A DNA stretch of 64,000 nucleotides from a virus (IMGVR_UViG_3300045135_000898:17971-81970), one strand, 5' to 3'; counted from the stretch's first letter, positions 4,255 to 52,366 are shown. Notes: a model not told the origin generated them from the sequence alone. Program-made: numbers and translations.

Positions 4255-5034
4255 TTATTTTTCGTGTTTCTTAATCAATTTCTCAATGAAAGACATACCT
4301 TGTGCGCGACGGTACATGCGCTCCATATCGCCTTTCTTACGTTTGTCTCGTTTAGCATATCCCGTTGGATTAAGGTCTACACCACCGCCTGCTACTGAAT
4401 TAGCCGCGACTTCTTCTTTGATTGGTTTAAGATACTTACCAGCAGCCACTGTGGTTTTTCCATCGTCCCATTCTACTTCAACGCGGCCACCAGCTTTGTC
4501 ACCACCTTTCACAACAGTACCTTTATTACCGTTGTGAATATTTTGAACTCGCATGTTTTTAATTAGTTTACCTTCTTCAAGCTCAACCTCTTCCATCATA
4601 CCGTACATTTTATCCAACTCACGTGCATCGGTACCACGGAATAATTTGGCCGCATCAGCAGCGCTACGACCAGTGTCCTTCATCCATTCAAGAGCTTTGC
4701 TATAGTTCTTGTTGAACTTTTTACTTAGCATTACCTTAAGCTCTTCCCAAGGAGAACGTTCTTGAAGCTCCGTTGATTCTTTAACAGATTCTTTAGGTAC
4801 GCAATTAGGAACTTCCTTACCGTCTTTCTTTTTCGTACCTAATTGTACATAGCCTTTCCAGCAAGGATCGTCGTCAGACTTTTCAAGCTCTTCCTGCTTG
4901 TATTTCTTTTTACCTTTCTCTTTACGGAGTTCGTATTCTAATTCCTTTTTACGGAATGAAGAAGCACGAGAAGGGCCAATACGGTCACCAAACTTATCGT
5001 ATTTTGCTTCAGTGAATTGCTTAAATGTTTTCAT
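4255..5034 (-). CDS. probable internal head protein / polyprotein
   Basis: N-terminus MKTFKQFTE resembles T4 capsid-targeting sequence; internal acidic E-x-[LV]-x-E linkers; PCWKGY..PNCVP module; SH3/KOW-like module. Confidence 0.7.
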   Translation of the reverse strand: MKTFKQFTEAKYDKFGDRIGPSRASSFRKKELEYELRKEKGKKKYKQEELEKSDDDPCWKGYVQLGTKKKDGKEVPNCVPKESVKESTELQERSPWEELKVMLSKKFNKNYSKALEWMKDTGRSAADAAKLFRGTDARELDKMYGMMEEVELEEGKLIKNMRVQNIHNGNKGTVVKGGDKAGGRVEVEWDDGKTTVAAGKYLKPIKEEVAANSVAGGGVDLNPTGYAKRDKRKKGDMERMYRRAQGMSFIEKLIKKHEK

Positions 5035-5339
5035 TAGTTATCTACCTTTGCTCCTGCGCGCCACTGATAGCACGACCAATATTTAGCTTTCCATTTTGGG
5101 CCTGGATCTTTATCGCATCCATGGCGAGCACGGAATGATTTGCGACGTTCAGGATCATCTCGTTTGATTTCCATATTAGGATCACCAAATTTAACCATAA
5201 CGATGTTTCCTTTATCGTTACGAACGTATACACCGAACTTTTTCTTTTCGCCTGAAGGTAGACGGAAAGGATCGTTCAGTTTTACCTTACGTCCTTGATA
5301 TTCGGCTTGTTCAGAAATAAACTCTTTGAAATTGATCAT
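5034..5339 (-). CDS. basic probable internal head protein
   Basis: MINFKEFISE N-terminus; RRKSFRARH.C...YWSC motif. Confidence 0.75.
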   Translation of the reverse strand: MINFKEFISEQAEYQGRKVKLNDPFRLPSGEKKKFGVYVRNDKGNIVMVKFGDPNMEIKRDDPERRKSFRARHGCDKDPGPKWKAKYWSCYQWRAGAKVDN

Positions 5340-5923
5340 CGTTTTAAATCCTGTGCGGTAACATACAAATCTTGACCAGATATCATATGTTTAACTTTAT
5401 AGATGGATTGTCCTAGTACCGTATCGATAGGATCACTTACTGATTCTACGACAATCTTATGATTCTTTTTACCAATGATTTCTCCTGTAATTGGAGAAGC
5501 AATATCATACGTAAGTTTGTATTCGCCTTGGCCTAGCTTACCTTCAGTAACGATCCAAACATTCGTGTCTTCTACTAAAGTATCATTAAGGTCCATACCT
5601 AATTCAGCAAATACTTGCTCGAACTCATCATCGTTAAAATTGAAGTTTTCTCTTAGTAGGTATAATGCGGTCGCGTACGATGCAAGTTTGCTACGACCAC
5701 CTGGGAGCATTTCAATAGTACGCTTAATGTTAAAAGCAAGACGGTCGAATAAAGTGTAAGATTCTTTTTCTTCGACTGTCTTAAGATCTCGTGTTTTACG
5801 AAGCACTTTGCCTTTATCGTCGATGATGCCGTATTTGAACGCATCCATGTCTTCCCAATCCGTAGTCAATTTACGTAGGAACTTATAGACGAAAAACGCG
5901 CCAGCTGCGTTACTTAAACTCAT
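5336..5923 (-). CDS. conserved hypothetical T4-like protein
   Basis: YKF.R.LT.DW...AFKYGIID..G motif; 4-bp overlaps with both neighbours. Confidence 0.75.
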   Translation of the reverse strand: MSLSNAAGAFFVYKFLRKLTTDWEDMDAFKYGIIDDKGKVLRKTRDLKTVEEKESYTLFDRLAFNIKRTIEMLPGGRSKLASYATALYLLRENFNFNDDEFEQVFAELGMDLNDTLVEDTNVWIVTEGKLGQGEYKLTYDIASPITGEIIGKKNHKIVVESVSDPIDTVLGQSIYKVKHMISGQDLYVTAQDLKR

Positions 5924-6288
5924 ATCTTTCTCAGTGCCTCTACTATCTTAGTATCCAACGGGATTTCTGGTAATGCGTCATCGCCGATGTAATTAAGATA
6001 TATCAAAAATGTTTTAAGGTACGACCAATGTTTACGACTAACTTTGTAGAATGTTAGCTTATGACCGCCTTCTATACCAAACACATTATAAATTACAATC
6101 AGATGATTAAGAATTAACCTTTCTTGTAAATCATCGTTTACTTCGTATCTTTTAAACAATCGTTTAAGATACTTAAATCTGTTCAAGTCGTCGTTGAATT
6201 CGTCAACGCTTGTACATTGAGGATTATCGTATACATGCATAGCATACATAGCGAAGTTATCCTCATTAATGATGTCGAATAAATGCAT
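5920..6288 (-). CDS. conserved hypothetical protein
   Basis: YDNPQC...ERLILNHLIVIYNVFG; downstream of late promoter. Confidence 0.8.
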   Translation of the reverse strand: MHLFDIINEDNFAMYAMHVYDNPQCTSVDEFNDDLNRFKYLKRLFKRYEVNDDLQERLILNHLIVIYNVFGIEGGHKLTFYKVSRKHWSYLKTFLIYLNYIGDDALPEIPLDTKIVEALRKI

Positions 6289-6321
6289 AAAAACCCTATA
6301 AAGATCAACTCAATATAGGGT

Positions 6322-6329
6322 TATTTATA
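6322..6329 (-). promoter_or_regulatory. T4-type late promoter (gp55), with hairpin 6293-6322
   Basis: TATAAATA. Confidence 0.75.
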
Positions 6330-6334
6330 TGCTA

Positions 6335-6559
6335 TTACTTTTTCTTTTTACGAGATACTTTCTTAACAATCTTTTCGACAATTGTATCTTCGGCAGGTTC
6401 TTCTACTTCAGCAACTTCAACCGCAGGAGCAGGTTTAACACCGTTCCATTCTGCGATCTGTTCTGCTGTTAGGCGAGCAACCTTTAGTCGTTCGCCTTTT
6501 GCATTGTAGTAACCGTCTTCTTTTGCGATAGCATCTTTAAGCCAAGTTGGTTTAGCCAT
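6335..6559 (-). CDS. hypothetical protein with basic C-terminus
   Basis: ORF with GGAG SD in operon. Confidence 0.7.
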   Translation of the reverse strand: MAKPTWLKDAIAKEDGYYNAKGERLKVARLTAEQIAEWNGVKPAPAVEVAEVEEPAEDTIVEKIVKKVSRKKKK

Positions 6560-6561
6560 TC

Positions 6562-8283
6562 TTATTCTCCTAGTGCTTTTGCCATTAGCTTTTCAGCTTC
6601 CTTGGCACTTACTTTAAATTTCTTAACGATCATTTTAACTGCATCTTCAGGACGTTTAGCATTTGCCATGATATCAGCAACTGCGTCCATTGATACTTTA
6701 GCTTCAGAAAGATCAGAAACAAGGTTCTTTAGAGTTTCAGATTTGTAACCAGCGTTTTCAGGCAACTTACCACGTTTAACTCCGTTGCGAACCTTCCATG
6801 CGTCTTTCCCATAGTCACGCATTTTTACACCTTTCTTGGCTGCTTTCTTTTCAGCCTTGTCGATGTCAACCATATTGCGAGCGTGAGTCTTAGCGTGTTT
6901 AGGATCTTGCTTCTTGTGCTGATCCTGACGTTCTTTGGCTTTACGCGACATGTAGTCAGCGCCAGCTTTAGACTTAGGAATAGTGAAAGTAACTTCATCA
7001 ATTTGTTCAACTGACTCATTCATTTCAGGATCAAGCTTATCAGCTAGTTTATCAAAACGGTCCATGTAGTTAATCGAAGGATGACGTAAGTCGTAACCTT
7101 TTGCAGATAGCTCCATGTAAACGTCAGCATCAATAAAGTTCCAATTAACTTTACCGCCTTTGTAGTTGCCTTTATCAGCTAAAGCTTTCTTCATTGACTT
7201 TTCAAATTCTTTATCAGAAAGAACATTACGAAGTTTCTTACCTTCTGAAAGCTCAGAAGATTCAAGAATAAGATCTTTAGGATCGACATTCATCTGACCT
7301 GTACCAACCTTAACCATAACTTTAGAACCCATCATACCAACAACTGTTCCTTCGTCATCCTTTGCTAAAGCGTCATATTTTCTAACGTTCTTGATCTTAA
7401 CAGAGTCACCTTTGTTAAATTTGGCTTCTACAACTACTTCAACGCCTTCTTTAAGATCTACATTGCCTGTGCTAGTATAGAAGAACTTATCTCCAACCAT
7501 ACCATACACGTTACCACGTTTAGTATCAATAGCAACTTCATCGCCAGCTTTAAGATCAACGGTTGCAGTTTTACCTTTACGTGTAAAGTTCTTCAATACC
7601 GGAACATAGCCGTTATCTGTATCGAAACTATTGCCACGAACTGGCATAACTTTAGCTGTAACTTTTTGAGCAGAAGCAATCTTAGCAACTTCACCTGAGA
7701 AATCTTTGATAGCATCTTTAGCATCAAATTTCATAAATTCTTCTAACTGTTCAACTTCTTCGTTTATTTTCTCAACAGCTTTCTTGTAGTCAAGTTTTGG
7801 TTTAGAGTAATAAGCAACTTCTTTACCGTTCTCTTTAACTTTGATACCAACACCGTCGTTGACGATTTCGTAATCACCGTATTTGTATGAAGTGTAACCA
7901 GCTTTCTTAGAAACCTTACATTCGATGCCAGCTTTTTTCAGAGCACGTGGCATAATGTTGTCGACGTAATCGCGAGTAGAAGCTTCAGTTAATTCAACTG
8001 ATTCTTTTTTCATTGACTTTTTAATCGCTTTACGACGATTGGCAAGGTACTCATCAGAGTCATCTACGTCGCCATCGTTATCAACATCGGCATCAGCCTT
8101 TCCTACAGGATCAAGAGCTTCCTTTTTACCTTTACGACCACACGCTTCTTCAACGTCGTCTTTCTTTTCGTCTTCAGCCTGATCACCGCCAACAGGCTTT
8201 GCCGCTGGATCTTCCGCTTCGGCCTTCATTTTCATTTTCTTGTATGCTTCAGCAATACCGTTTAGTTTATCGTCAATAAACAT
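6562..8283 (-). CDS. multi-module probable internal head polyprotein
   Basis: Repeated acidic linkers ESVELTEA, EEVEQLEE, EGVEVVVEA, ESSELSEG, ESVEQIDE; DxDxDGDxD Ca-binding-like motif; highly expressed codon usage. Confidence 0.75.
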   Translation of the reverse strand: MFIDDKLNGIAEAYKKMKMKAEAEDPAAKPVGGDQAEDEKKDDVEEACGRKGKKEALDPVGKADADVDNDGDVDDSDEYLANRRKAIKKSMKKESVELTEASTRDYVDNIMPRALKKAGIECKVSKKAGYTSYKYGDYEIVNDGVGIKVKENGKEVAYYSKPKLDYKKAVEKINEEVEQLEEFMKFDAKDAIKDFSGEVAKIASAQKVTAKVMPVRGNSFDTDNGYVPVLKNFTRKGKTATVDLKAGDEVAIDTKRGNVYGMVGDKFFYTSTGNVDLKEGVEVVVEAKFNKGDSVKIKNVRKYDALAKDDEGTVVGMMGSKVMVKVGTGQMNVDPKDLILESSELSEGKKLRNVLSDKEFEKSMKKALADKGNYKGGKVNWNFIDADVYMELSAKGYDLRHPSINYMDRFDKLADKLDPEMNESVEQIDEVTFTIPKSKAGADYMSRKAKERQDQHKKQDPKHAKTHARNMVDIDKAEKKAAKKGVKMRDYGKDAWKVRNGVKRGKLPENAGYKSETLKNLVSDLSEAKVSMDAVADIMANAKRPEDAVKMIVKKFKVSAKEAEKLMAKALGE

Positions 8284-8293
8284 GTTTTTACCC

Positions 8294-8560
8294 CTAGTGT
8301 AAAATGATTAAAGCTGCAATAATACCGACTACGCCGGCGGCCAAAGCAGCACTGATGTATTTATGAGAATTGGCAAATGTCTTAAGGTTACCTAGTGCTT
8401 CCTCAAGATCTTTGATTCGGTTACTATGTTCTGTGGTTTTATCATCAAGATAATCAATACGACGTTCAGCTTCTCGGATAGACTCGATTACTTCACTGAT
8501 TTTGTCGATTTTCTTTTCAATACGATCAAGAATAAGATCTATATTATCGCTATTAGACAT
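8294..8560 (-). CDS. coiled-coil protein with C-terminal TM helix (XhlA/holin-like architecture)
   Basis: Coiled coil then ALAAGVVGIIAALIIL. Confidence 0.6.
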   Translation of the reverse strand: MSNSDNIDLILDRIEKKIDKISEVIESIREAERRIDYLDDKTTEHSNRIKDLEEALGNLKTFANSHKYISAALAAGVVGIIAALIILH

Positions 8561-9407
8561 CTTCTGTCACCGTGTCCTTTCCATCGAGAGATTCAACGTC
8601 GTCAAGCCACTTACGGATTTTCTTACCTTCTTGTGTCTCAACAATTAAGTAGTTCGCGCCACGTGATACAATAGTGGCAAGTTCACCGCTTTCTGAAATA
8701 ACAACGTGTTCGTCTTTTTCAAACAAATCGCCAGCAACGTATGCTTCTCGCGTTTCTGATACAGATTCAAACTGTACATGCTCTCGGAACGAACGTGATT
8801 CTTTAAGACCCATTGCTTTACGAAGATCGTTAAACAATTGTTGGCCTTCTTTGAATCCACTTGGTAAACCTTTATTAAATGAAAGTAGATCATTGGCAGC
8901 TGCAGCAGCTCGCATTTTAGATGCTGACATACCAGATACATCATCAGCGTCAGGATCGCGCTCACCTGCCGATACAATTACAACGCCGTTTTCAAAATTG
9001 TAAAAACCGTGACGACCTTCTACACCGTTATATTTGTTACATAGCGCGTCAAACTCATGGACACGGTCTGAGCCAACAACCATTTGAACTTCGGTGTAAC
9101 CTTTCTTGTATAACTGTACTAGGATATCGAATACCATGCGTACTTTTTTGTCAAGGATAATCTTACGAGCATGGCGCGGAAACATCTTGCGCATGTACTT
9201 GACTTTTGTTTGGTAATCGAAAGGATTCTTTTTAGCATCATTAGACTGAGATGCGTAAATGAAGTAGTCACCACCACGAGCTTCGTTTGCTACTTTATCG
9301 AGTAGCTTTTCGTGGCCTACTGTTGGAGGATTAAATCGACCAAATGTAAAGGTAGCTTTTTTACCTTTTTCTTCGGTCAAGAATTGGGAAAAAGACTTAA
9401 TGCTCAT
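8553..9407 (-). CDS. HIGH-superfamily nucleotidyltransferase (cytidylyltransferase/NMNAT-like)
   Basis: FGRFNPPTVGH, VVGSDR, MSASKMR motifs; N-terminal SFSQFLTE. Confidence 0.85.
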   Translation of the reverse strand: MSIKSFSQFLTEEKGKKATFTFGRFNPPTVGHEKLLDKVANEARGGDYFIYASQSNDAKKNPFDYQTKVKYMRKMFPRHARKIILDKKVRMVFDILVQLYKKGYTEVQMVVGSDRVHEFDALCNKYNGVEGRHGFYNFENGVVIVSAGERDPDADDVSGMSASKMRAAAAANDLLSFNKGLPSGFKEGQQLFNDLRKAMGLKESRSFREHVQFESVSETREAYVAGDLFEKDEHVVISESGELATIVSRGANYLIVETQEGKKIRKWLDDVESLDGKDTVTEDV

Positions 9408-9799
9408 TACTTATCACTGCCTCCGCCACGTTTCTTAGCAAGTTCTTGCTTTTTAACTTGTGGCAGTAGTTTACGAGCGATGCGATCGATTGCACCTTTC
9501 TTTTTATCAACTTGTTTTTCTAGGTTTTGGCGACCAGAGAATGATAGCTCGCTCTTGTCTTTACCTTTTAGCAGTTTCTTTTCTAATGAATCACGAGCTT
9601 GTTTACGAGCACGCTTTTTAAGCTTTTCTGGTGAAGCAATTCGTTTTTCAGCCTTCTTGCGTCCCATAGCAATCTTTGCTTTGTTCTTACGCATAGTTGC
9701 TTTAGCTTTCATGCGTTGCTGAAGTGTCATTGCTTCGTCGAGATCTGCGTCTTCGACCAAATCATCACAAATCTCTAAATATTCTTTTAATGATAGCAT
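9407..9799 (-). CDS. highly basic probable internal head protein
   Basis: MLSLKEYLE...LDE leader then K/R-rich body. Confidence 0.7.
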   Translation of the reverse strand: MLSLKEYLEICDDLVEDADLDEAMTLQQRMKAKATMRKNKAKIAMGRKKAEKRIASPEKLKKRARKQARDSLEKKLLKGKDKSELSFSGRQNLEKQVDKKKGAIDRIARKLLPQVKKQELAKKRGGGSDK

Positions 9800-9833
9800 T
9801 TCTTATTTCCCATTCGGATGCTGACCTACAAAA

Positions 9834-11072
9834 TTAGGCTCGAGACGGCGTGTCCCAGCCTTTCACAATTTCAGGACTGAAGTTATTAAAGCTAAACTCC
9901 ATTCGGTCAACCAGTTTAACGGCGCCGCCTTTCATATGGTCGATAGCCACGAACCCTTCGGCTCCTGTTACCTTGTAACCATTTTTAGTTTTTACAAAAG
10001 TATTTATACTATTTAATTTATTAAGTTTACGTATGATTATTAACTTAGCGTCAACAATTGCTTTTTGCAAATCAAACACAAGCTTTAAGTTAGCCTTATT
10101 TGATTCATCGAAAAACTTAAGGAATTCGTCACGTTTAGCCGATTGAGCAGACTTGCCTTTCTCAGTTTTACGTTTATCAATTTCCTTTTGATATTTATCA
10201 TGGATAAACTTCATCAGTCCGTCCACGTGCTTGCGAGTATCCTTAATGGTTTCGCCTTTACGAACAAATGAGTTATTAAAGGTTTCAATAGTTCGAGCAA
10301 GATCTTGGTTGGCTTCAATCTGCTTAAGAGTTGTACCACTAATCTTGCGGAAGATACGACCTGCATTTGAAAGAGCAGCAGTAACTTCATCAGTATCTTT
10401 CTTTGTAAATGTTACAGTACCGGACAAGTCGTGTAGACCTGCGTCAACAATCCAAGATGATGTTTTCTTGAACTTAGACGCGTCAACACCGTAACTTGCT
10501 TTCATTTCTTCAAAAGAAGCTCCGCTGTAAGAGGTGTGGAATACCACGCCAATTGGTGCTTTGGCGATACGTTTACCTTCTTCTGAGTCTTTTGGGACTG
10601 CGTACAAAATCGTGTTCGGATGAAATGTAACATATGATTCACCTTCGATTTTTTCTGTTTTAAGGTCATCGTTTGTGAACATAATATCGCCTTGAACGAC
10701 ACCCTTAATGCCAAGTTTTGATAACTCAGCAAGAGCAACCTTCATTTTGTTATTAAGTTCTCCATTTGCAATATCTTCGTCGATATCTGCATTCGTTTTA
10801 TACACCTTAGGGTTCTTATTAAAGATACCTTTTTTGGCTACAAAGAATTTACCGTCGCTTGGATCAATACCAGCAAATACGGCAGGAGCGCCATCCCACT
10901 TCACAGTCACGTCCGTAGCACCTTTCGAGGAACCGGCTAGCATGTCACGAAGCGACCTGAGAGCAAGGATGGCGTCCCTTGCACCTTTTACACCGCCATA
11001 GATCACCTGATCTTCAAGGTGAGTCATGTGAGTATTCTTTTCTTCAGTAATAAACGACTTAAAATCAATCAT
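9834..11072 (-). CDS. conserved phage protein with ligase/capping-type nucleotidyltransferase motifs (DUF6267-like)
   Basis: TVKWDG (KxDG), QGDIM, EGFV, VKLVDR; MIDFKSFITE N-terminus. Confidence 0.7.
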   Translation of the reverse strand: MIDFKSFITEEKNTHMTHLEDQVIYGGVKGARDAILALRSLRDMLAGSSKGATDVTVKWDGAPAVFAGIDPSDGKFFVAKKGIFNKNPKVYKTNADIDEDIANGELNNKMKVALAELSKLGIKGVVQGDIMFTNDDLKTEKIEGESYVTFHPNTILYAVPKDSEEGKRIAKAPIGVVFHTSYSGASFEEMKASYGVDASKFKKTSSWIVDAGLHDLSGTVTFTKKDTDEVTAALSNAGRIFRKISGTTLKQIEANQDLARTIETFNNSFVRKGETIKDTRKHVDGLMKFIHDKYQKEIDKRKTEKGKSAQSAKRDEFLKFFDESNKANLKLVFDLQKAIVDAKLIIIRKLNKLNSINTFVKTKNGYKVTGAEGFVAIDHMKGGAVKLVDRMEFSFNNFSPEIVKGWDTPSRA

Positions 11073-11073
11073 C

Positions 11074-12363
11074 TTAATGAGCCTTTAAATATGGACCGGA
11101 CATTTCAGATTCAGAAGCGGCATAGCCTAGAATCGCTGAAACGATATCTCGTTTCTTGTCGTCATTCTGTTTTAGGAAATGATATAGGAATTGAGATCCC
11201 ATAATCATTGAAGTAAAGAATGTATCGTCTTTCTGAGATAATTGCTGAACAAACTCTTCTTGAGACATGTTCTTGCCTTCGATGTAATTATGGAATGTCA
11301 AGAATTTCTTAACGTTTGCTTCAGTTCGCTGAGCAAGTTCTTTTTGTGGAATAAAATCAATGCCAGTGTGGCGTTTCATAATTGACGCAATTGGACCGCC
11401 TGAAATTTTACCTTGGTTTGCAAACTGACCTTTGATTTCGCCTTGCCAAGTTGAACCAAACGTGCGGAACTGGATTTCGCCACCATCGTAACGGATGTAA
11501 ATATCGTTAGAAAGGAAAAAGCCTTTCTTACCTGAAGTCCAACCGGTGTACTCGTATGACTTACGCGATTTATCAATGTTCTTAGGATCAAGACGTGCTG
11601 TACGACCAACCTTCTTAAGAGATACGCCAATGATATCGCCTGACATATACGCATCAAGCATCATGCCGTTCAATTCAACAAGAGTGCTTGCCTGGGTTAG
11701 GTCGATGTTTTCTCCTTTAGCCGTAACCATGTAAATGTCAGCAGGAGACCACTTATTCAAGTTAGAGAATTCCTTCTCCACTTTGTTTAGTTTCTTCCAA
11801 TGATTTTCAAGACGGTCTACCCAACGTGATCCGCGGTGGAATTTGTAACGCTTGGTACGGAATTTATTTTCAATGGCATCAGCGATGACGATACTTGAAT
11901 TACGCCAATCTTCTGGAAGATCGTTAATAATGCGATCAAGTTTATCATCAATATCGAAGTACTTGGTAACTTTACGGAATGTAGAAGCAGTGTAATCGCC
12001 TTTACCGTACCACGCTGCAGCGAGGTAAACACATTGAGCACATTCAGCCATTTTGGTAACATCAGCGCCAGCACCAGAGCCGCCTTTACCTTTTGGATGT
12101 TTTACTTCAATCTTCCAACCATCTTTGGTCTCAACACGACCAACTGATGAACTGCCACCTTTAGGATTATATTTAGCATCAAGCTTTTTAGCAATATCTT
12201 TTAAAGCTGCTTCACGGTCGCCTTTTACTTCAACGGTGATTTGTTTGCCTTTTACTCCGCGGATATCTTTATAACCCGCTTCCTTTAGACGAGTTTGCAA
12301 ATCGTCCTTGCTCATCGCTTCCTTAAGAAACGTTCTAAATAAAATTCCTACCGGTGCTACCAT
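11074..12363 (-). CDS. hypothetical protein, possible PD-(D/E)xK nuclease fold
   Basis: E(C)...WSPADIY...IIGVSLKK pattern; FRTFLKE near N-terminus. Confidence 0.55.
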   Translation of the reverse strand: MVAPVGILFRTFLKEAMSKDDLQTRLKEAGYKDIRGVKGKQITVEVKGDREAALKDIAKKLDAKYNPKGGSSSVGRVETKDGWKIEVKHPKGKGGSGAGADVTKMAECAQCVYLAAAWYGKGDYTASTFRKVTKYFDIDDKLDRIINDLPEDWRNSSIVIADAIENKFRTKRYKFHRGSRWVDRLENHWKKLNKVEKEFSNLNKWSPADIYMVTAKGENIDLTQASTLVELNGMMLDAYMSGDIIGVSLKKVGRTARLDPKNIDKSRKSYEYTGWTSGKKGFFLSNDIYIRYDGGEIQFRTFGSTWQGEIKGQFANQGKISGGPIASIMKRHTGIDFIPQKELAQRTEANVKKFLTFHNYIEGKNMSQEEFVQQLSQKDDTFFTSMIMGSQFLYHFLKQNDDKKRDIVSAILGYAASESEMSGPYLKAH

Positions 12364-12403
12364 TGTTCTAATCCGTTTAATTTAAAATTAATTATATTTA
12401 TAA

Positions 12404-12427
12404 CAAAAAAGCCCCTATGAAAGGGGC
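12404..12427 (-). terminator. rho-independent terminator
   Basis: GCCCC-TTTCATA-GGGGC followed by T7 on minus strand. Confidence 0.8.
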
Positions 12428-12442: not shown

Positions 12443-12724
12443 TTAAGAACGGTTGTAGACATAAACATCGATCTTGGTGGCATTTGCGATACCTCCTACG
12501 ATGTTTCCTGCCCAATCATATGATAGTTTGGACATCTTACCAGTGTAAGGATTGTACTTATCCATTTTAACAAGAGGTTTACGGCCACGAAGAACAACTC
12601 GTTTCTTTACGCTTTTACCTTTATTCATAATTGATACCGCTTTACGAAGTTCTTCAATCTGAAGCATATCAGAAGCAGAGTTGATGTCAGCAGTAAAGAT
12701 GTAAGAAGTAGATGTACGTTTCAT
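12443..12724 (-). CDS. hypothetical early protein
   Basis: ORF with AAGGA SD, own early promoter and terminator. Confidence 0.75.
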   Translation of the reverse strand: MKRTSTSYIFTADINSASDMLQIEELRKAVSIMNKGKSVKKRVVLRGRKPLVKMDKYNPYTGKMSKLSYDWAGNIVGGIANATKIDVYVYNRS

Positions 12725-12755: not shown

Positions 12756-12783
12756 ATTATACCAAATTTTCGAAAGATGTAAA
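12756..12783 (-). promoter_or_regulatory. early promoter
   Basis: TTTACA-16-TATAAT. Confidence 0.75.
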
Positions 12784-26355: not shown

Positions 26356-27639
26356 TTAAAGTTTTTCACCGGCTTCAAATCCACGGAAACATTTAAAACG
26401 AGGGAAACGTAAGCTATAAGTACCATCTTGGTTTTGTGTAATGGCATCAGCTTTAATTTCCACGAGCTGACCGATTACTTCAGACTTGGAATTCCAAATG
26501 TTATCGCGGTCAGCATCAGTAAGGCCAGAGCCAACATTAACAGCGATTTCTCGACCAGTATCGGATCCTCGGCATACAAGCGCTCCAGTCGAACCCACAT
26601 ATTTACCAGTGCCTTCTTCAACATCGACGACCTCCAAAGTTACTTCGATGACGGGTTTAATTTTTAACCATGATTTTGTTCGTTTGGTTTCATAAGGCGC
26701 TTCAGGGTCTTTAAGCATAATCCCTTCATATCCACCTTCAATAGCTTTTGCATTAATTTCACGGAAGATACGTTGACCAATTTGAGTGTCGAGATCAACA
26801 GGAGTTTGCTGAACTACCTTAACACAATCTTCATCTTTGACTGTATTTTTAAGAATCTCAGAACGCACTCGTTGAGGAGCAGTATCGGTACCTTGACGGA
26901 ATGAACGATACGAAACAATGTCGAACAAATACAAACAAGCATCATCGGTCTGAACATCGTCTTTACGGTGTACCTGCTTCATCAGATCCTGAAACGAAGA
27001 AGACATAACCTCGCCATCAAGAACGAACGGAGTATCAATAGCATATTTGGATAAGGCTTCTTCAATTTTAGGAAAGTTCGTTAGTCGTTTACCATTACGG
27101 CTATGCATATCAACACGGCCATCTGGATGAACAATTGAGATTACACGTACACCATCAAGTTTAACCTCAACGTACTTCTCTCCACCGATTTTCTTTTCCT
27201 TTGCGCCATCCTTAGCAAGCTGACATGAAAAAACAGGTACAGCTTTATCGCCTGCTACTTTATTCCAAGTAGTCACGTTAACACCACAACGCATGTCTTT
27301 AAGTAATGCACGACGATAAAAGTTATTCCAATCATCGGCATTTACAAGTTCAGCCACACGAGAGATTTCTTCGGCCGCAGCATTGCCTGTAAGAGTACGA
27401 GATGAAAGGTCGTTCATTAAAGACGTAACATATTGAAGAGCATATTCTTCGTTAAGTCCTGCTGAATTGGTTGACTCAGGTACTTGTTTAACTCCGAATG
27501 TTTCATACGTGTCAAGTGCACGACGAAACATTTCGACAAAACCAATAGGAGGATTGTTAATAGCCTGAGTAAGGATTGCTTCTTTGTCAAGCCTGGAGTT
27601 GGTTGACTCCAGACGTTTCATAATATTTGCCAATGACAT
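26356..27639 (-). CDS. 30: ATP-dependent DNA ligase
   Basis: EVKLDGVR, SRNGK, LDGE, EGIMLK, WLKIK, VGSG, SLRFPRF. Confidence 0.95.
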   Translation of the reverse strand: MSLANIMKRLESTNSRLDKEAILTQAINNPPIGFVEMFRRALDTYETFGVKQVPESTNSAGLNEEYALQYVTSLMNDLSSRTLTGNAAAEEISRVAELVNADDWNNFYRRALLKDMRCGVNVTTWNKVAGDKAVPVFSCQLAKDGAKEKKIGGEKYVEVKLDGVRVISIVHPDGRVDMHSRNGKRLTNFPKIEEALSKYAIDTPFVLDGEVMSSSFQDLMKQVHRKDDVQTDDACLYLFDIVSYRSFRQGTDTAPQRVRSEILKNTVKDEDCVKVVQQTPVDLDTQIGQRIFREINAKAIEGGYEGIMLKDPEAPYETKRTKSWLKIKPVIEVTLEVVDVEEGTGKYVGSTGALVCRGSDTGREIAVNVGSGLTDADRDNIWNSKSEVIGQLVEIKADAITQNQDGTYSLRFPRFKCFRGFEAGEKL

Positions 27640-38377: not shown

Positions 38378-38665
38378 CTAGCAAGGATTAAATGGGCCTT
38401 TTAATCGTTCTTGTTGAATTCTATATATAAGCAGATATCCAAGCAAGTCAAGAATAACATCTTCGCCTGCATTGTCTCCACGTTTCAGTCGACTGAGCTT
38501 GTCGTCAATACGAACGTTCAATTGCTCAAGTGCGTCTGACTTTGAAAAGATACGTACAGGGTCCAATGCCGAATCACCGTACGCTTCATTCTTTTTCGTT
38601 AGCAAATTTTCGATTTCAAATAAGACCGAAGCCAATTCACTTTTAAACTTTTCTTGATTATCCAT
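38378..38665 (-). CDS. nucleotide-modification-associated domain protein (DUF1599/Nmad1-like)
   Basis: KKNEAYGDS...VRIDDKLSRL...EDVILDLLGY. Confidence 0.75.
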   Translation of the reverse strand: MDNQEKFKSELASVLFEIENLLTKKNEAYGDSALDPVRIFSKSDALEQLNVRIDDKLSRLKRGDNAGEDVILDLLGYLLIYRIQQERLKGPFNPC

Positions 38666-38675
38666 TATATCTCCA

Positions 38676-39836
38676 TTAGTTAAATGCAGCAGAGATGGCG
38701 TCATCGATCGCTGATTCGCGGTCCATGATTTCGCCTTCAACTTCGGTGGTACCTAGGCTGCCATCTACTTTACTATATAAGTCAAGGAATGCTTCCTTAA
38801 CATCGGCGTCGAAACGATTCACACAAAGTTCAACAGCTTTCTTACGATCTTCGAAGATGCTGTACGTCTGTGCGATGTGACATAGACGGCGTGTCGAGAT
38901 TACCTCGTCCACACCACCATCATCGTAGGTCTTACGGATAGTTTCAGACCAAATTGCCAACAACTCTGCAAATTCGTTATCAGTAGCATTAAATTTATCA
39001 AGATGCTTATTGATAATCTTACGCTCAGTTGCAAGAGTTGGATAAGGCTGTTCCATTGTAATGGTAAAACGCTCTAGGAACGCCTCATCGATGATGGTAG
39101 CCGCGATAAAGCGACCGTCTTCAGAGCCACGACCTTTTGTGTTCGCAGTAGCGACCACGTTGAAACCTGGAGCAGGAGTAACCACTTCACCAGTTTTCTT
39201 AATCATTACCGGCTTACCTTCGAGGACGCCCTGCAAGGCCATGATCTTGTTGGAGCCACGATCGATCTCGTCAATTAGAAGCAAAGCACCAGCTTCCATG
39301 GCTTTCACAACAGGACCTTTAGCAAAAACTGTCTCACCTTTAATGAGACGGAAACCGCCTAGCAGGTCGTCCTCGTCGGTCTCAGGAGTAATCTGAACTC
39401 GAACGTACTCACGATTAAGTTTAGCACAAGCTTGCTCAACCATCGTGGTTTTACCGTTACCGCTCAATCCTGAGATGTAAGTCGGATAAAATTGTTTTGA
39501 TCCTACGATCATTTCGATGTCTTTAGAGTTACCCCATGCGACGTAACAGTCATCTTTAGAGGGAACATACACATCTTCGTTCATAACTGATTGTACAGCG
39601 GAAGCCAATGGTTTCTTCTCCTCGGTAATAGGGTTATCTTGACGGAATGCAACTACCGCACCGGCCATGTCATAAACACCACGACGAACCGATGGGAACT
39701 GCTTAACATATTTATAAGCCTCGGCATTACGCATACCGAGAGATTTTGTAACTTCAAGTACATGGCGAGGAGCGAATTCAGTCTGATCCACGAAGCGAGC
39801 CGCGAGTTCAGCAGTGATACGATCAAATGTAGACAT
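38676..39836 (-). CDS. MoxR/CobS-like AAA+ ATPase
   Basis: GLSGNGKT, TDEDDLLGG, LLIDEID, ATANTKG, LERF, ISTRRL. Confidence 0.92.
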   Translation of the reverse strand: MSTFDRITAELAARFVDQTEFAPRHVLEVTKSLGMRNAEAYKYVKQFPSVRRGVYDMAGAVVAFRQDNPITEEKKPLASAVQSVMNEDVYVPSKDDCYVAWGNSKDIEMIVGSKQFYPTYISGLSGNGKTTMVEQACAKLNREYVRVQITPETDEDDLLGGFRLIKGETVFAKGPVVKAMEAGALLLIDEIDRGSNKIMALQGVLEGKPVMIKKTGEVVTPAPGFNVVATANTKGRGSEDGRFIAATIIDEAFLERFTITMEQPYPTLATERKIINKHLDKFNATDNEFAELLAIWSETIRKTYDDGGVDEVISTRRLCHIAQTYSIFEDRKKAVELCVNRFDADVKEAFLDLYSKVDGSLGTTEVEGEIMDRESAIDDAISAAFN

Positions 39837-49276: not shown

Positions 49277-50584
49277 TTATGCAGCGTCAAGGATGTTGCT
49301 TACTGCGAAGATACGGTAGTAAGTGTTGCTACGAACAGCGCCAACTTCGTTAGTGTTGTCAACGAATGGGTTAGCAACCATGCCGTAACGAGTCTTGAAG
49401 CCGATCTTAGGCTGGAAGGTATTTTCACCAACCGCACGAACCATTGTTAGTGGTACGTATGGGCAGTAGAACAGACCAGCGTCGTAAGCAGAAGAACCTT
49501 TGTAACCAACAGTTACGTAGTTATCAGTTGCGTACGGATCCAAGTAAACTTTGATGCCACCAGTGATAGTACCAACAAGAGTTGTACCAGTTACGTCAGA
49601 ACCAACGCCTGCGTTACCAGCAAGAGCAGGAGTGTAATCAAGCATACCAGATGCAGACAGTGCAGCAGCAACGTCAGCAGATACTAGGATGAAGTTACCT
49701 TTACCGCGACGAGTAGTCTGAGCAATTGTGTTAGCTTCACGCTGTAGGTGTACAAGTAGACCTTTGTACTTCTCAACAGACCAACGGCCATCAGCGTCAG
49801 CAGCAAGGTCGAAAGTACCTTTAACAGCGATTTCGCTCTGCTGTGCACCAAGTACAGCGCGTGAGTTGATAGTACGAACAACTTCACGGTTGATCTCAGC
49901 AAGGATCTCACCAGAAAGGATGTTAGCAAGTTCAGACTCAGCGTCAAGACCGTGGATTGCTTTAAGATCCTGAGCAAGTTCCATTGTGTACTCAGCTTTC
50001 AGAGCGCGGCTCTTAGCAGTAACAGTGGTCTTCTCGATGCTGAAAGACATCTCAGCGAAATCAGGACCAGTACCGTCGCCTAGTGCTTCAGCTGCAGCAG
50101 TAGTCATACCCTGACCTAGAGCGAATGAATCATTAACGCCGTCAGCAGGAGTAGTATCAGTGCCACCAAGTGAAGAAGAAGACTCAGCCTGAGTACCAGT
50201 ACCAGAGAATGCAGAGTTCGCTTCGTCGAACAATGCTTCAGTACCGTTCTGTGCACCGTAACGAGATTTCATTGCGAATACAAGACCAGTAGGACCAGAC
50301 ATTGGCTGTACACCACATAGGTCGTATGCGATCAGGTTAGGCATAGCACGACGAACAAGAGAGATCAGGATAGGATCCCAGTTCGCGATAGCAGAACCAG
50401 TTGAGTTAGTAGGAGCAGCTTCAGATAGGTACTGAGACTGGCCACGCTCTTCAGCAAGTGCCTTTTCAGTGTTTTCTAGAAGTACTGCAGTTACCGCTTT
50501 GCGGTGAGAGTCCTGGAATTCTGGAGCTTCTTTTGCTTCCATTACAGGAGCCCATTTTTCCATGATTGTATCAGCTTTAAACAT
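49277..50584 (-). CDS. 23: major capsid protein gp23
   Basis: LVRRAMPNLIAYD.CGVQPM.GPTG, AQDLKAIHGLDAE.EL, FQPKIGFKTRYG. Confidence 0.99.
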   Translation of the reverse strand: MFKADTIMEKWAPVMEAKEAPEFQDSHRKAVTAVLLENTEKALAEERGQSQYLSEAAPTNSTGSAIANWDPILISLVRRAMPNLIAYDLCGVQPMSGPTGLVFAMKSRYGAQNGTEALFDEANSAFSGTGTQAESSSSLGGTDTTPADGVNDSFALGQGMTTAAAEALGDGTGPDFAEMSFSIEKTTVTAKSRALKAEYTMELAQDLKAIHGLDAESELANILSGEILAEINREVVRTINSRAVLGAQQSEIAVKGTFDLAADADGRWSVEKYKGLLVHLQREANTIAQTTRRGKGNFILVSADVAAALSASGMLDYTPALAGNAGVGSDVTGTTLVGTITGGIKVYLDPYATDNYVTVGYKGSSAYDAGLFYCPYVPLTMVRAVGENTFQPKIGFKTRYGMVANPFVDNTNEVGAVRSNTYYRIFAVSNILDAA

Positions 50585-50608: not shown

Positions 50609-51574
50609 TTAAGATTTTTTAAGTGCTTCAAGGTAGCTCATCATTGTAGCAGATACTTCTTGAGTAGTACCTTCTGACAATTCTTCAGCTTCTTCCTTGA
50701 TTTCAACAGTCTGTTTGAAGTAAGATTCTTTGATAGTTTCCAATTTAGACTGGAAAGTTTCAGCATCAACGAAGTCTACATCTTCAACTAGTGACTTAAG
50801 TTTTTCAGCTTGTGCTTCAGAAAGACCTGTAGCAGATTCGCGGATCAATTTTTCACGAGACAGTTCTTTAACAGACTCGCTCAATTCGATTGCTTTTTCT
50901 ACTTCAGCATTGTAAGATTCTTCCAAAGATTCTACACGCTGTGCAAGTTCTTCAACTAGGTCAGCCTTACCTTCTGGTACTTCGATGTAATGCTCAGCAA
51001 ATACACCATGTAAAGCACCGATGAATGATTCAGCAAGATCAGCACGTAGACCAGTTTCTACAGCAACCTTGTTATCTTCCATCCAAGATTCTACAACATA
51101 GTTAAGGTAACCGTCGACTTTGTCAACAAGGTCAGCTTTCATTGATGCAGTTTCTTCAGCAAGTTGTTCAGCGTAAGATTCTTCCAAACGCTCAACGTGC
51201 TCAGCCAGTTTAGACTTAAGCGCAGCTTCGAAGATTACAGAAGCTTTATCGCGGAACTGCTCAGATAGAGTAGCTTCGCCTTCTACAAGCGCGTCAAGAT
51301 CTTCTTTAAATGCGTCTTCTTTTACAGCAGCTTTAGCTTTAGGCTCAGCAGCTTTAGCAGGCGCAGACTTCTTAACGTTCTTGACAGTTTCAGCACCAGC
51401 GGCAACCGCGTCGTCTTCTACTGCTTCTTCCATATCTTCGTCTTCTTCAGATTCGTCTTCTTCAGACTCTTCTTCAGCGACTTTTTTCGCTTCCTCGAGT
51501 TCCTCGTCAACCGTAACTTCAACGTCTTCAACGAGTTCATCTTGGAGCTGTTCTTCAACGTCGTATTTAGACAT
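50609..51574 (-). CDS. 22: prohead core scaffold gp22
   Basis: LSEQFRDKASVIFEAA, KVDGYLNYVVESW.EDN; between 21 and 23. Confidence 0.93.
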   Translation of the reverse strand: MSKYDVEEQLQDELVEDVEVTVDEELEEAKKVAEEESEEDESEEDEDMEEAVEDDAVAAGAETVKNVKKSAPAKAAEPKAKAAVKEDAFKEDLDALVEGEATLSEQFRDKASVIFEAALKSKLAEHVERLEESYAEQLAEETASMKADLVDKVDGYLNYVVESWMEDNKVAVETGLRADLAESFIGALHGVFAEHYIEVPEGKADLVEELAQRVESLEESYNAEVEKAIELSESVKELSREKLIRESATGLSEAQAEKLKSLVEDVDFVDAETFQSKLETIKESYFKQTVEIKEEAEELSEGTTQEVSATMMSYLEALKKS

Positions 51575-51703: not shown

Positions 51704-51711
51704 TATTTATA
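51704..51711 (-). promoter_or_regulatory. late promoter for 22-23
   Basis: TATAAATA overlapping the gp21 stop. Confidence 0.75.
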
Positions 51712-52366
51712 CTTTAATCGAATTCAAGAAATCTTTAAATAACTTGATTGATGTATCAGTATCCATACGTTTGTAATTTTCTTTTACGAACTTAGCTTGT
51801 TCTTCAACAACTTCCTGAGTCCAAATACCTAGGCTTTCATCAAAGATCCATTCACGGCCTTCCATGATACCGTTTACAAATGCTTCATGAGCAGATGGGT
51901 CTTGAACAATATCTACAGTGTTAAGAACGAAATCATCACCGACAGTAACGCTGCCGTCGCGTCCACGGATTACAGAACCCATACCGCGAGATGATACACC
52001 AAGTTGTACACCGCCTTCCATTAGACCTTTTGCGATCAATCCCATTGGTGTATTTAATAGCTTAGCTTTACCAATTACGTTGTCACCATCCCATTTTAAT
52101 TCGGTGATCAAATGAGATACTTTGTCTAGGTTTACGGTTGGACCTTCAGGGTGATTAAGTTCACCAACTGCGCGTCCTTTAGAGACCTGTTCGTCTACAT
52201 ATCGCTGAACAGCTTTCTCCATAATTGGTTTAGGGTATACTCGTCCATTTCGGTTTTTCATGTTTGACTGCAAGAAAATACCTTCAATGAACATATTTTT
52301 CTCACCGCCTTTACCTTCGGTGATATACTCCAACTCTTGGTCAAAGTGTTCAGTGATAAGCTTCAT
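51707..52366 (-). CDS. 21: prohead protease gp21
   Basis: MKLITE, NRNGRVYP, GELNHP, GVSSRGMGS, DIVQDPSA. Confidence 0.97.
   Translation of the reverse strand: MKLITEHFDQELEYITEGKGGEKNMFIEGIFLQSNMKNRNGRVYPKPIMEKAVQRYVDEQVSKGRAVGELNHPEGPTVNLDKVSHLITELKWDGDNVIGKAKLLNTPMGLIAKGLMEGGVQLGVSSRGMGSVIRGRDGSVTVGDDFVLNTVDIVQDPSAHEAFVNGIMEGREWIFDESLGIWTQEVVEEQAKFVKENYKRMDTDTSIKLFKDFLNSIKV

Follow-up and report, generated by a model that had tools for sequence, protein, structure and literature searches.

A T4-type head-loading leader on late proteins of an uncultured marine phage points to a probable internal-protein locus with a DUF6267-nucleotidyltransferase pair

The stretch IMGVR_UViG_3300045135_000898:17971-81970, called the window below (the whole 64,000 nucleotides (nt) that were analysed), comes from an uncultured marine T4-like phage represented by an 82-kilobase (kb) IMG/VR contig that CheckV estimates to be ~45% complete. 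The closest deposited relative is phage C48C1 (Kyanoviridae), with 57% identity over a 412-amino-acid (aa) protein of the Pfam family DUF6267. Several late proteins encoded in the window, the DUF6267 protein among them, begin with a T4-type loading tag, so that the phage probably injects them together with its DNA. As a whole, the region is best explained, in our judgement with moderate confidence, as a T4-style internal-protein locus with enzymatic cargo. An earlier note on this DNA had proposed a virion-packaged and injected module made up of a ligase-like enzyme, a nicotinamide-nucleotide adenylyltransferase (NMNAT)-like enzyme, a basic protein and a nuclease-like protein. Packaging and injection gain support from the leader, a head protease and scaffold, a late promoter box and virion-listed homologues, whereas the ligase, NMNAT and nuclease identities are unproven.

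The four genes of the earlier note are tightly packed on the minus strand, with overlaps or gaps of at most 34 nt:

11074-12363, minus strand: open reading frame (ORF) of a 429-aa protein (phrog_1462)
9834-11072, minus strand: ORF of the 412-aa DUF6267 protein (PF19782)
9407-9799, minus strand: ORF of a 130-aa, very basic protein (phrog_23027)
8553-9407, minus strand: ORF of a 284-aa nucleotidyltransferase with HIGH signature (CTP_transf_like, phrog_395)

All four proteins start with a T4-like leader, as the earlier note had it, the 130-aa protein in a variant form and the 284-aa and 429-aa proteins with a shifted register. Two further genes of the same block carry the leader as well (a slash marks the bond that follows the Glu):

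11043-11072, minus strand: leader of the 412-aa protein, residues 1-10, M-I-D-F-K-S-F-I-T-E, in the register of T4 IPII/IPIII
5034-5339, minus strand: gene of a 101-aa leader protein in the leader block, M-I-N-F-K-E-F-I-S-E
4255-5034, minus strand: gene of a 259-aa leader protein in the leader block, M-K-T-F-K-Q-F-T-E/A
9407-9799, minus strand: gene of the 130-aa protein, leader variant M-L-S-L-K-E-Y-L-E
9372-9407, minus strand: leader of the 284-aa protein, residues 1-12, M-S-I-K-S-F-S-Q-F-L-T-E
11074-12363, minus strand: gene of the 429-aa protein, leader at residues 9-15, F-R-T-F-L-K-E, reading ...I-L-F-R-T-F-L-K-E-A

In the GenBank record of T4, the internal proteins IPII and IPIII begin M-K-T-Y-Q-E-F-I-A-E/A, IPI begins M-K-T-F-K-E-F and continues further on with I-T-E/A, Alt begins M-E-L-I-T-E, and the cleavage region of gp23 reads F-L-T-E/A-E-I-G-G. 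The capsid-targeting sequence given in the earlier note (M-K-T-Y-Q-E-F-I-A-E) is thus confirmed by the T4 record, and its role in loading and cleavage is described in the accessible part of a review of T4 head assembly (PMC9026906). According to that part, the first ten residues of IPIII are enough for head loading; residues 4 and 7 chiefly govern targeting, and residues 8 and 10 govern processing. Measured against this T4 scheme (hydrophobic or aromatic residues at 4 and 7, L or I at 8, E at 10), the match is exact for the 412-aa and 101-aa proteins and one residue short for the 259-aa and 130-aa proteins, and the leaders of the 284-aa and 429-aa proteins are shifted by 2 and by 5, respectively. 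The shared leader agrees with the T4 sequence at the four functionally mapped positions.

The leader is confined to one place. Among 114 non-overlapping ATG-initiated ORFs of at least 50 aa in the contig, the leader pattern occurs in 6/11 within the block 4255-12363 and in 0/103 elsewhere (Fisher one-sided p = 1.7e-7, a value that is descriptive because the pattern was written after the leaders had been seen). In a set of 80 related loci from viral contigs, the canonical ten-residue pattern was found at 100 of 1,074 ORF N-termini and at none of 4,629 internal Met positions. A complete relative (G002; 146.6 kb, with terminal repeats) has convincing leaders at 39.8-42 kb only, which is the syntenic locus; with the loosest screen, three further ORFs elsewhere were flagged, and we interpret these as chance. 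A DNA repeat as the source of the leaders was ruled out, since their codons differ from one another in the window, which places the conservation at the protein level.

Orthologues differ in whether they carry the leader. Among 150 DUF6267 representatives at 50% identity, 37 have it in canonical register and 8 in a near form, while 21 start straight at a conserved H-x-x-H-x-E-D block; many of the 70 representatives missed by the strict pattern have plain leader variants. Of 55 N-terminally complete nucleotidyltransferase orthologues, 5 carry canonical and 28 near leaders. The family of the 429-aa protein has members both with and without leader, and the orthologues of the 130-aa protein have leaders of the type M-x-S-F-K-x-[FY]. 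In relatives, the leader is also found on a zeta/AAA_33 kinase (L085), on DUF5824 proteins and on about fifteen unannotated families, as well as on a protein adjoining DUF6267 (L071) whose start is DxDxT-like and which matches Pfam DUF2608 weakly (E 0.0015); by our own reading, not as tool output, this protein is possibly phosphatase-like. The leader appears to be a module that comes and goes between orthologues, sits on unrelated folds and is restricted to a single late locus. In a 516-aa metagenomic protein (P0122), the family of the 101-aa leader protein is fused ahead of DUF6267, with an N-terminus that by eye resembles that of the window's 101-aa protein.

The protease and scaffold that T4-type capsid targeting requires are both encoded in this phage, next to the major head protein:

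51707-52366, minus strand: gp21-type S77 protease (PF03420, E 1e-42), itself starting M-K-L-I-T-E
50609-51574, minus strand: gp22-like acidic scaffold, 321 aa, a scaffold-like ORF
49277-50584, minus strand: gp23 (PF07068, E 1.6e-144), with the site Y-L-S-E/A-A-P

The S77 protease is present in four of the five long related contigs, the fifth being a 51% fragment. By analogy with T4, we infer packaging and cleavage in this phage, followed by injection. The leader, with its aromatic residues 4 and 7 and the subsequent [LI]-x-E, would dock the proteins onto the scaffolding core of the prohead, and the gp21-type protease would cleave after the leader's Glu. The mature proteins would then stay beside the DNA inside the head and pass into the host along with it.

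Published virion proteomes of related phages bear on this model. A homologue of the 284-aa nucleotidyltransferase is found in four cyanophage virion proteomes, and the leader is present on all three homologues whose sequences were read. In the S-CREM2 virion list (PMC10665884), gp154 is given as a 'cytidylyltransferase' (3 unique peptides) together with its neighbours gp155, 156 and 160; the GenBank record gives the start of gp154 as M-K-N-F-S-S-F-L-T-E. The list for S-SZBM1, as far as available (PMC9146016), holds the cytidylyltransferase S-SZBM1_140 (2 unique peptides), _139 and _136. S-SZBM1_140 is 38% identical to the 284-aa protein and starts M-R-F-R-Q-F-I-I-E. The 'NMNAT' ORF91 of S-SCSM1 is reported in virions in the available passages of PMC9602691; virion status in this phage was taken from the 'virion protein' notes in GenBank, which mark ORFs 89-93 of the syntenic locus. 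S-SCSM1_91 starts M-K-S-F-L-Q-F-L-K-E and shares 41% identity with the 284-aa protein. S-SCSM1_90, also annotated 'virion protein', shares 35% identity with the 429-aa protein (E 6e-53) and has no clear leader. The virion kinase of S-CRM01, whose detection is known to us second-hand as cited in the accessible part of PMC10665884, starts M-I-S-F-D-Q-F-L-S-E and is encoded between DUF6267 and the nucleotidyltransferase homologue.

The DUF6267 copies of the same phages are without leader. S-SZBM1_141, which adjoins S-SZBM1_140, has the conserved block at its very start and is absent from the virion list as far as that list is available. The short DUF6267 proteins S-SCSM1_257 and S-CREM2 gp87 are encoded elsewhere in their genomes, are leaderless and are not marked as virion proteins. 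Leader-bearing nucleotidyltransferase homologues are thus found in virion proteomes and leaderless DUF6267 homologues are not listed, and on these grounds we consider packaging of the leader proteins in this phage likely. In the passages of the three proteome papers available to us (PMC10665884, PMC9146016, PMC9602691), no route into the virion is given and the leader is not mentioned. The literature search retrieved no publication linking these proteins to a capsid-targeting sequence; among the matches listed for capsid-targeting-sequence literature, none concerned marine phages by title or start of the abstract. The 69-aa 'virion protein' S-SCSM1_93 (L215:41626-41835) has a leader-like T-F-K-E-F-L-E-Y-I-E at its end, not at its start.

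Several observations weigh against this interpretation. The 284-aa and 429-aa leaders are out of register, and that of the 429-aa protein hinges on the choice of start codon, as it would be lost if translation began at Met17, which follows an AAGGAA box; the leader pattern was, furthermore, formulated post hoc. DUF6267 is absent from the virion lists as far as they are readable, and the three checkable copies are all leaderless. Proteins of the locus that are virion-listed, as far as the lists could be consulted, and have no leader include S-SCSM1_89, _90 and _92, S-SZBM1_139, and S-CREM2 gp155, 156 and 160, by which the tag is neither necessary nor proven sufficient. The proteome authors themselves caution, in the passages at hand, that CsCl preparations may contain abundant late enzymes as contaminants (PMC10665884, PMC9602691).

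The same caution favours an alternative in which the proteins are not packaged at all. The shared N-terminus might be a short helix for a cytoplasmic late complex, a degradation or regulatory tag that is cut outside the head, or a trace of shared ancestry of the gene starts, and the virion detections would be carry-over. The low peptide counts in the accessible lists (3 unique in S-CREM2, 2 in S-SZBM1) fit this view, and N-terminal mapping is absent from the proteomes in the parts that were available. However, the leader matches the T4 tag at positions that were mapped by function, and its distribution over unrelated folds and between orthologues within one late locus also speaks against such an explanation. 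In the readable lists, moreover, the leader-bearing nucleotidyltransferases were detected, whereas the neighbouring leaderless DUF6267 was not. We regard absence from the virion as quite unlikely, and hold to a T4-style internal-protein locus.

The known system that is closest in this respect is that of T4 IPI, IPII, IPIII and Alt, which shares with the present locus the leader register, the [LI]-x-E ending, small basic cargo, expression that here is probably late, an S77 protease with scaffold, and cargo that varies between relatives. In contrast to T4, the cargo here is mostly enzyme-like (DUF6267, the HIGH nucleotidyltransferase and, in relatives, kinases), the genes form one block between helicase/ThyX genes and nrdA, and packaging and cleavage are deduced from the genes. 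The virion proteins called 'NMNAT-like' or 'cytidylyltransferase' in S-SCSM1 (ORF91), S-SZBM1 (_140) and S-CREM2 (gp154) are in all three cases leader-bearing homologues of the 284-aa protein, and their locus is also the same, flanked by helicase/MazG and primase/nrd genes; they differ in that the full-length or short DUF6267 copies of these phages are leaderless and not listed as virion proteins.

The arrangement of transcription signals upstream of the four genes is in line with late expression:

12756-12783, minus strand: early promoter TTTACA-16-TATAAT, near-consensus sigma-70-type, driving the 93-aa gene
12443-12724, minus strand: 93-aa early gene, upstream of the four-gene unit
12411-12427, minus strand: intrinsic terminator with a 6-bp GC-rich stem followed by a T run, ending the 93-aa early gene
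12395-12402, minus strand: T4-type late promoter box TATAAATA, directly after the terminator and ~30 nt upstream of the 429-aa ATG
6322-6329, minus strand: second TATAAATA box, preceding the DUF7207 gene

The box TATAAATA occurs 16 times in the window, every time on the gene strand (expected 5.17 +/- 2.52; none of 100 shuffles reached 16), and is also found ahead of the gp20, gp21 and gp22 genes. A terminator search within the four genes (8553-12363) gave no convincing candidate. Given the terminator, the TATAAATA box that follows it and the lack of a convincing internal terminator, all of which are consensus matches only, co-transcription as proposed in the earlier note is reasonable and the unit looks late. 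The four genes look like the head of a late transcription unit within an 8-kb internal-protein block. The segment 12395-12783 on the minus strand is in itself a compact early-to-late switch, with a sigma-70-type promoter, the 93-aa gene, a strong terminator and a late box within 30 nt.

The 412-aa protein belongs to DUF6267 (PF19782, E 1.5e-104, residues 13-399), a large family for which all 8,000 of the 8,000 scored candidates pass 1e-5 and which forms 2,706 clusters at 50% identity; it is found in 407 deposited phage records, mostly of cyanophages, and a literature search by name gave no publication on it. The earlier note had read the protein as a covalent nucleotidyltransferase. Its layout comprises the leader (1-10), the H15-x-x-H18-x-E-D block, KWDG (K58), QGD (127-129), an insert of ~190 aa, EGFV (372-375) and K386-L-V. 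Conservation was assessed in an alignment of 113 diverse homologues averaging ~42% identity to the query, which has 11 invariant and 34 nearly invariant positions. K58, D60, G373 and K386 are invariant; G61, Q127, G128, D129, E372, V375, L387 and V388 are each conserved in at least 90%. An IIIa-like block (F150/N153/Y157) is conserved as well and lies in order between QGD and EGFV. The putative motifs IV and V are 14 residues apart, against 13 in T4 Rnl1. The 26 residues that follow K386 leave no room for a C-terminal OB domain, as the note had said. It had likewise pointed to a normal DNA ligase elsewhere, which is present:

26356-27639, minus strand: ordinary ATP-dependent DNA ligase (PF01068, E 1.5e-27)

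The ordered motifs suggest ligase-type chemistry for the 412-aa protein, and this part of the claim stands at that level; a significant profile match to ligases was not obtained. Several results tell against such chemistry. Pfam, PHROGs, NCBIfam and PDB sequences gave no significant link of the 412-aa protein to ligases or nucleotidyltransferases, and a PDB profile search with its family returned no ligase. Comparison of the DUF6267 alignment with Rnl1, Rnl2 and DNA-ligase profiles by hhalign was not significant (E 0.026-0.63); it covered T4 Rnl1 and T4 DNA ligase as single sequences, an Rnl1 family alignment, and Rnl2 and DNA-ligase alignments made from viral contigs, with local runs on column blocks of the DUF6267 alignment. 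Its best local matches, equally short of significance, placed motifs IV-V on those of Rnl1 (E 0.026-0.14) and, for the phage's own DNA ligase, KWDG on motif I (E 0.31). Motif V lacks its second lysine (K-L-V-D-R), ~190 residues lie between the IIIa-like block and motif IV, and a complete relative (G001, 195 kb) also encodes canonical Rnl1-type and Rnl2-type ligases. DUF6267 as a substitute for missing RNA ligases was ruled out, as G001 has both types too; DUF6267 is thus not simply 'the' RNA ligase. Pfam RNA_lig_T4_1 was touched by 4/113 members (best E 6.2e-4), the window's 412-aa protein not being among them. SWI2_SNF2 matches in 14/113 members were regarded as a common local resemblance, and hmmsearch in both directions gave weak, repeated matches of helical parts only. 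An Atlas model of a 74%-identical homologue (P0077; predicted template modelling score 0.78) has structural neighbours in the DUF6267 family only.

These negative searches are what speaks for a second alternative, in which DUF6267 is not of ligase type but either an internal protein that is structural or binds DNA, or an enzyme with a different fold in which conserved K, D, E and H residues mimic ligase motifs. The invariant H15/H18 block, N153, Y157 and H179 are not classical ligase motifs, and the long insert between the putative motifs points the same way. On the other hand, the number of invariant and nearly invariant positions in 113 sequences would point to catalysis, and DUF6267 is constantly paired or fused with a nucleotidyltransferase. 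Short forms of 294-295 aa, S-SCSM1_257 (L220:3407-4291) and S-CREM2 gp87 (L221:1891-2778), are without most of the insert and retain KxDG, QGD, EGF and K-L-V-D-R. In the hhalign set-up, the true DNA ligase, Rnl1 and Rnl2 families were not joined to each other either (E 0.055-0.19), and the negative outcome for DUF6267 therefore has no power. A non-ligase nature of DUF6267 appears rather improbable to us. In G002 (38510-39818; L093) the DUF6267 frame is apparently interrupted near the N-terminus and opens after the H-x-x-H block, yet residues 1-411 gave a tblastn match; a non-standard start, a frameshift or a fault in the assembly might account for this.

In Pfam, the 284-aa protein exceeds the CTP_transf_like (PF01467) cut-off of 21 with 27.8 bits. 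It is assigned to phrog_395 (E 3.7e-77) and also matches positions 421-681 of phrog_455. Its layout is a leader (1-12), a catalytic domain (~18-200) and a small beta-rich C-terminal module (~215-284). T29-x-G31-H32 and G159-M-S-A-x-K-x-R166 are conserved to at least 90% in 58 orthologues, and GxDR and SAGxRDPD are further conserved motifs. Homologues occur in 550 phage records, with 'cytidyltransferase' as the name in cyanophage annotations. The best NCBIfam matches are NMNAT and PPAT families (E 0.004-0.03), covering the N-terminal 60-130 residues only; the NCBIfam scores of the protein are 13.8-16.6 bits against cut-offs of 27.7-341, the NMNAT equivalogs having cut-offs of 103-341. The PHROG entry 'nicotinamide-nucleotide adenylyltransferase' matches with E 0.006, and a PDB sequence search returned nothing relevant. 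Of the proposed NMNAT/cytidylyltransferase-like enzyme, the general enzyme family is retained and the specific one is not: by these profile matches, the 284-aa protein is a divergent HIGH-type nucleotidyltransferase, not a proven NMNAT. Its C-terminal ~60 residues (8553-8760, minus strand) correspond to phrog_4808 and are in some cyanophage records a separate ORF or mislabelled NrdA/NrdB; by eye, short modules of this kind recur in a 573-aa protein of the block and in the 259-aa protein.

The two enzymes appear to be coupled. Atlas holds a cluster of 760-aa proteins that unites both domains, the phrog_455 profile covers both, and 6 of the 20 long DUF6267 representatives examined have an additional CTP_transf_like domain, four at the C-terminal and two at the N-terminal side. 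In one of the 20 (P0123) DUF6267 is joined to an AAA_33/zeta kinase, and one also has DUF5824. The kinase is further found fused to the nucleotidyltransferase in L086 and alone, with a leader, in L085; the L086 fusion (L086:12377-15220, from G001) has at least 948 aa and lies 4 kb downstream of DUF6267. Downstream sequence was sufficient in 59 related loci; 53 of these have the nucleotidyltransferase no more than 2.5 kb from DUF6267, and in 40 the basic protein follows DUF6267 directly. As judged from these sequences, the conserved core is DUF6267, the small basic protein and the HIGH-signature nucleotidyltransferase, and DUF6267 and the nucleotidyltransferase would clearly work as one functional unit. 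The earlier note knew of no assigned function for this pairing, and our literature searches likewise gave none; that the nucleotidyltransferase is associated with virions had been published before.

If injected, the pair would act in the first moments of infection, most likely by transferring a nucleotidyl group onto a phosphorylated substrate. Here we infer both the ligase-type chemistry and the substrate. Possible outcomes would be a nucleic-acid end that is sealed or adenylylated, or a dinucleotide of the nicotinamide adenine dinucleotide (NAD) type that is made or recycled. The first outcome, which is a specific version of the chemistry favoured above, would make the locus an end-healing and sealing kit. 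DUF6267 would join nicks or ends, the P-loop kinase of relatives would phosphorylate 5' ends and the HIGH enzyme would assist adenylylation, all to mend the cuts that host defence nucleases make in tRNA or phage nucleic acid. The ordered, conserved KxDG, QGD, EGFV and K-L-V with their Rnl1-like spacing are consistent with it. So are the non-significant hhalign pairings, which align like motifs with Rnl1 and the phage's own DNA ligase, the RNA_lig_T4_1 matches, the AAA_33/zeta kinases as fusions and neighbours, and the DxDxT-like leader protein beside DUF6267 in L071. T4 Rnl1 with polynucleotide kinase is comparable by the KxDG lysine, the E-G-[FY]-V followed by a conserved lysine 13-14 residues on, the lack of a C-terminal OB domain, a helical region, and the occasional association of DUF6267 with an AAA_33-type kinase. 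In contrast, DUF6267 has no significant sequence or profile similarity to Rnl1 or any other ligase, one lysine in motif V and ~190 residues inserted before motif IV. The Rnl1 pathway is without a HIGH nucleotidyltransferase, the conserved partner of DUF6267, and such an enzyme has no known role in pathways of this kind. To our knowledge, T4 Rnl1 has no capsid-targeting leader. Kinases of the AAA_33/zeta type also phosphorylate small molecules, none is encoded in the block of this window, and ligases are available already, of Rnl1 and Rnl2 type in G001 and as DNA ligase in the window. Healing and sealing is a tentative proposal, which we rank slightly ahead of a supply of NAD-type dinucleotides.

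In the latter case, the 284-aa protein would be an adenylyltransferase for nicotinamide mononucleotide (NMN) or a similar substrate that arrives with the DNA, sustaining NAD+ against NAD-depleting defences or feeding an NAD-using partner. On this view, DUF6267 might be a lysine adenylyltransferase that depends on NAD+, and its partner would recycle the NMN that it releases. This would agree with the best NCBIfam and PHROG matches of the 284-aa protein and with the view of the cyanophage proteome authors, who in the accessible passages call the homologue NMNAT-like and propose effects on NAD+ (PMC10665884, PMC9602691). The fusion of nucleotidyltransferase and P-loop kinase in L086 also fits, and a fusion with the KxDG enzyme would permit product channelling. 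A nucleotidyltransferase joined to a P-loop kinase is the domain arrangement seen in NadR and CoA synthase; NadR is a bifunctional NMNAT and ribosylnicotinamide kinase. The likeness to NadR extends to the weak best NCBIfam match of the 284-aa protein, which is the NMNAT domain of NadR. However, the scores are far below the family cut-offs, the kinase of the relatives is of AAA_33/zeta type and lacking in the window's block, and NadR is without a KxDG partner. The 284-aa protein has TxGH in place of HxGH, which is more PPAT-like, and DUF6267 is without any link to NAD+. No nicotinamide phosphoribosyltransferase stood out among the ORFs inspected, in which no search was aimed at one. A few dozen packaged enzyme molecules would, furthermore, be a weak means of restoring a metabolite pool. 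A role in NAD-type supply seems unlikely on balance.

Going beyond the internal-protein locus itself, we may speculate, with considerable doubt, that in marine T4-like phages the T4 head-loading tag serves as a common address for an exchangeable set of enzymes. The constant core of this set would be the DUF6267 lysine nucleotidyltransferase and the HIGH adenylyltransferase that makes or recycles its donor, e.g. an NAD-type cofactor made from NMN on the spot. Once injected, this pair would seal, cap or adenylylate nucleic-acid ends before phage expression, independent of the ATP/NAD state of the host and of NAD-depleting defences.

The other proteins of the block are less constant. The 429-aa protein is assigned to phrog_1462 (E 1.5e-57) and to no Pfam family. 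The earlier note had called it nuclease-like from its PAD...SLKK signature, and the signature is real in that D209, S248-L249-K250 and E309 are invariant in the family and K311 is conserved to at least 90%; the nuclease identity found no counterpart, as the 74 members gave no consistent Pfam family and no PDB sequence match. A homologue immediately precedes DUF6267 in 10 of 66 related loci, and the family is represented at any position in 22 of 80. A fixed third member of the unit was thereby ruled out, and from this distribution the protein appears to be a variable cargo slot whose nuclease nature is unproven. The 130-aa protein (phrog_23027, E 6.4e-19) is very basic, as had been noted, and in this is like the T4 internal proteins; it is probably a DNA-binding internal protein of that kind. 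The remaining genes are:

8294-8560, minus strand: XhlA/holin-like membrane protein, 88 aa (weak XhlA/hemolysin-type PHROG matches)
6562-8283, minus strand: charged modular 573-aa protein, starting ...G-I-A-E/A
6335-6559, minus strand: 74-aa protein in the leader block
5920-6288, minus strand: DUF7207 protein, behind the second TATAAATA
5336-5923, minus strand: 195-aa protein in the leader block

The 88-aa protein has a coiled coil and a C-terminal membrane helix and is conserved mid-block in 20 related loci. The 573-aa protein matches the 'virion protein' S-SCSM1_92 (E 7e-4) and, weakly, phrog_8765 'internal virion protein'; it may be a polyprotein that is cut by the head protease.

Capsid-targeted internal proteins are known as a kind, and the virion association of the nucleotidyltransferase has been published. 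What is new here is that the tag is recognised on these proteins and is spread as a module over a variable set of enzymes, together with the obligate pair of DUF6267 and nucleotidyltransferase. Should the tag act as it does in T4, a motif of ten residues would predict from sequence alone which proteins are injected by abundant marine T4-like phages, cyanophages and uncultured relatives included, and the scattered non-structural proteins of virion proteomes would become a defined and testable class. Leaders of this type could also serve as cargo-loading tags in non-coli T4-like phages. The partnership of DUF6267 and the nucleotidyltransferase, finally, may point to an undescribed chemistry in the first minutes of infection.

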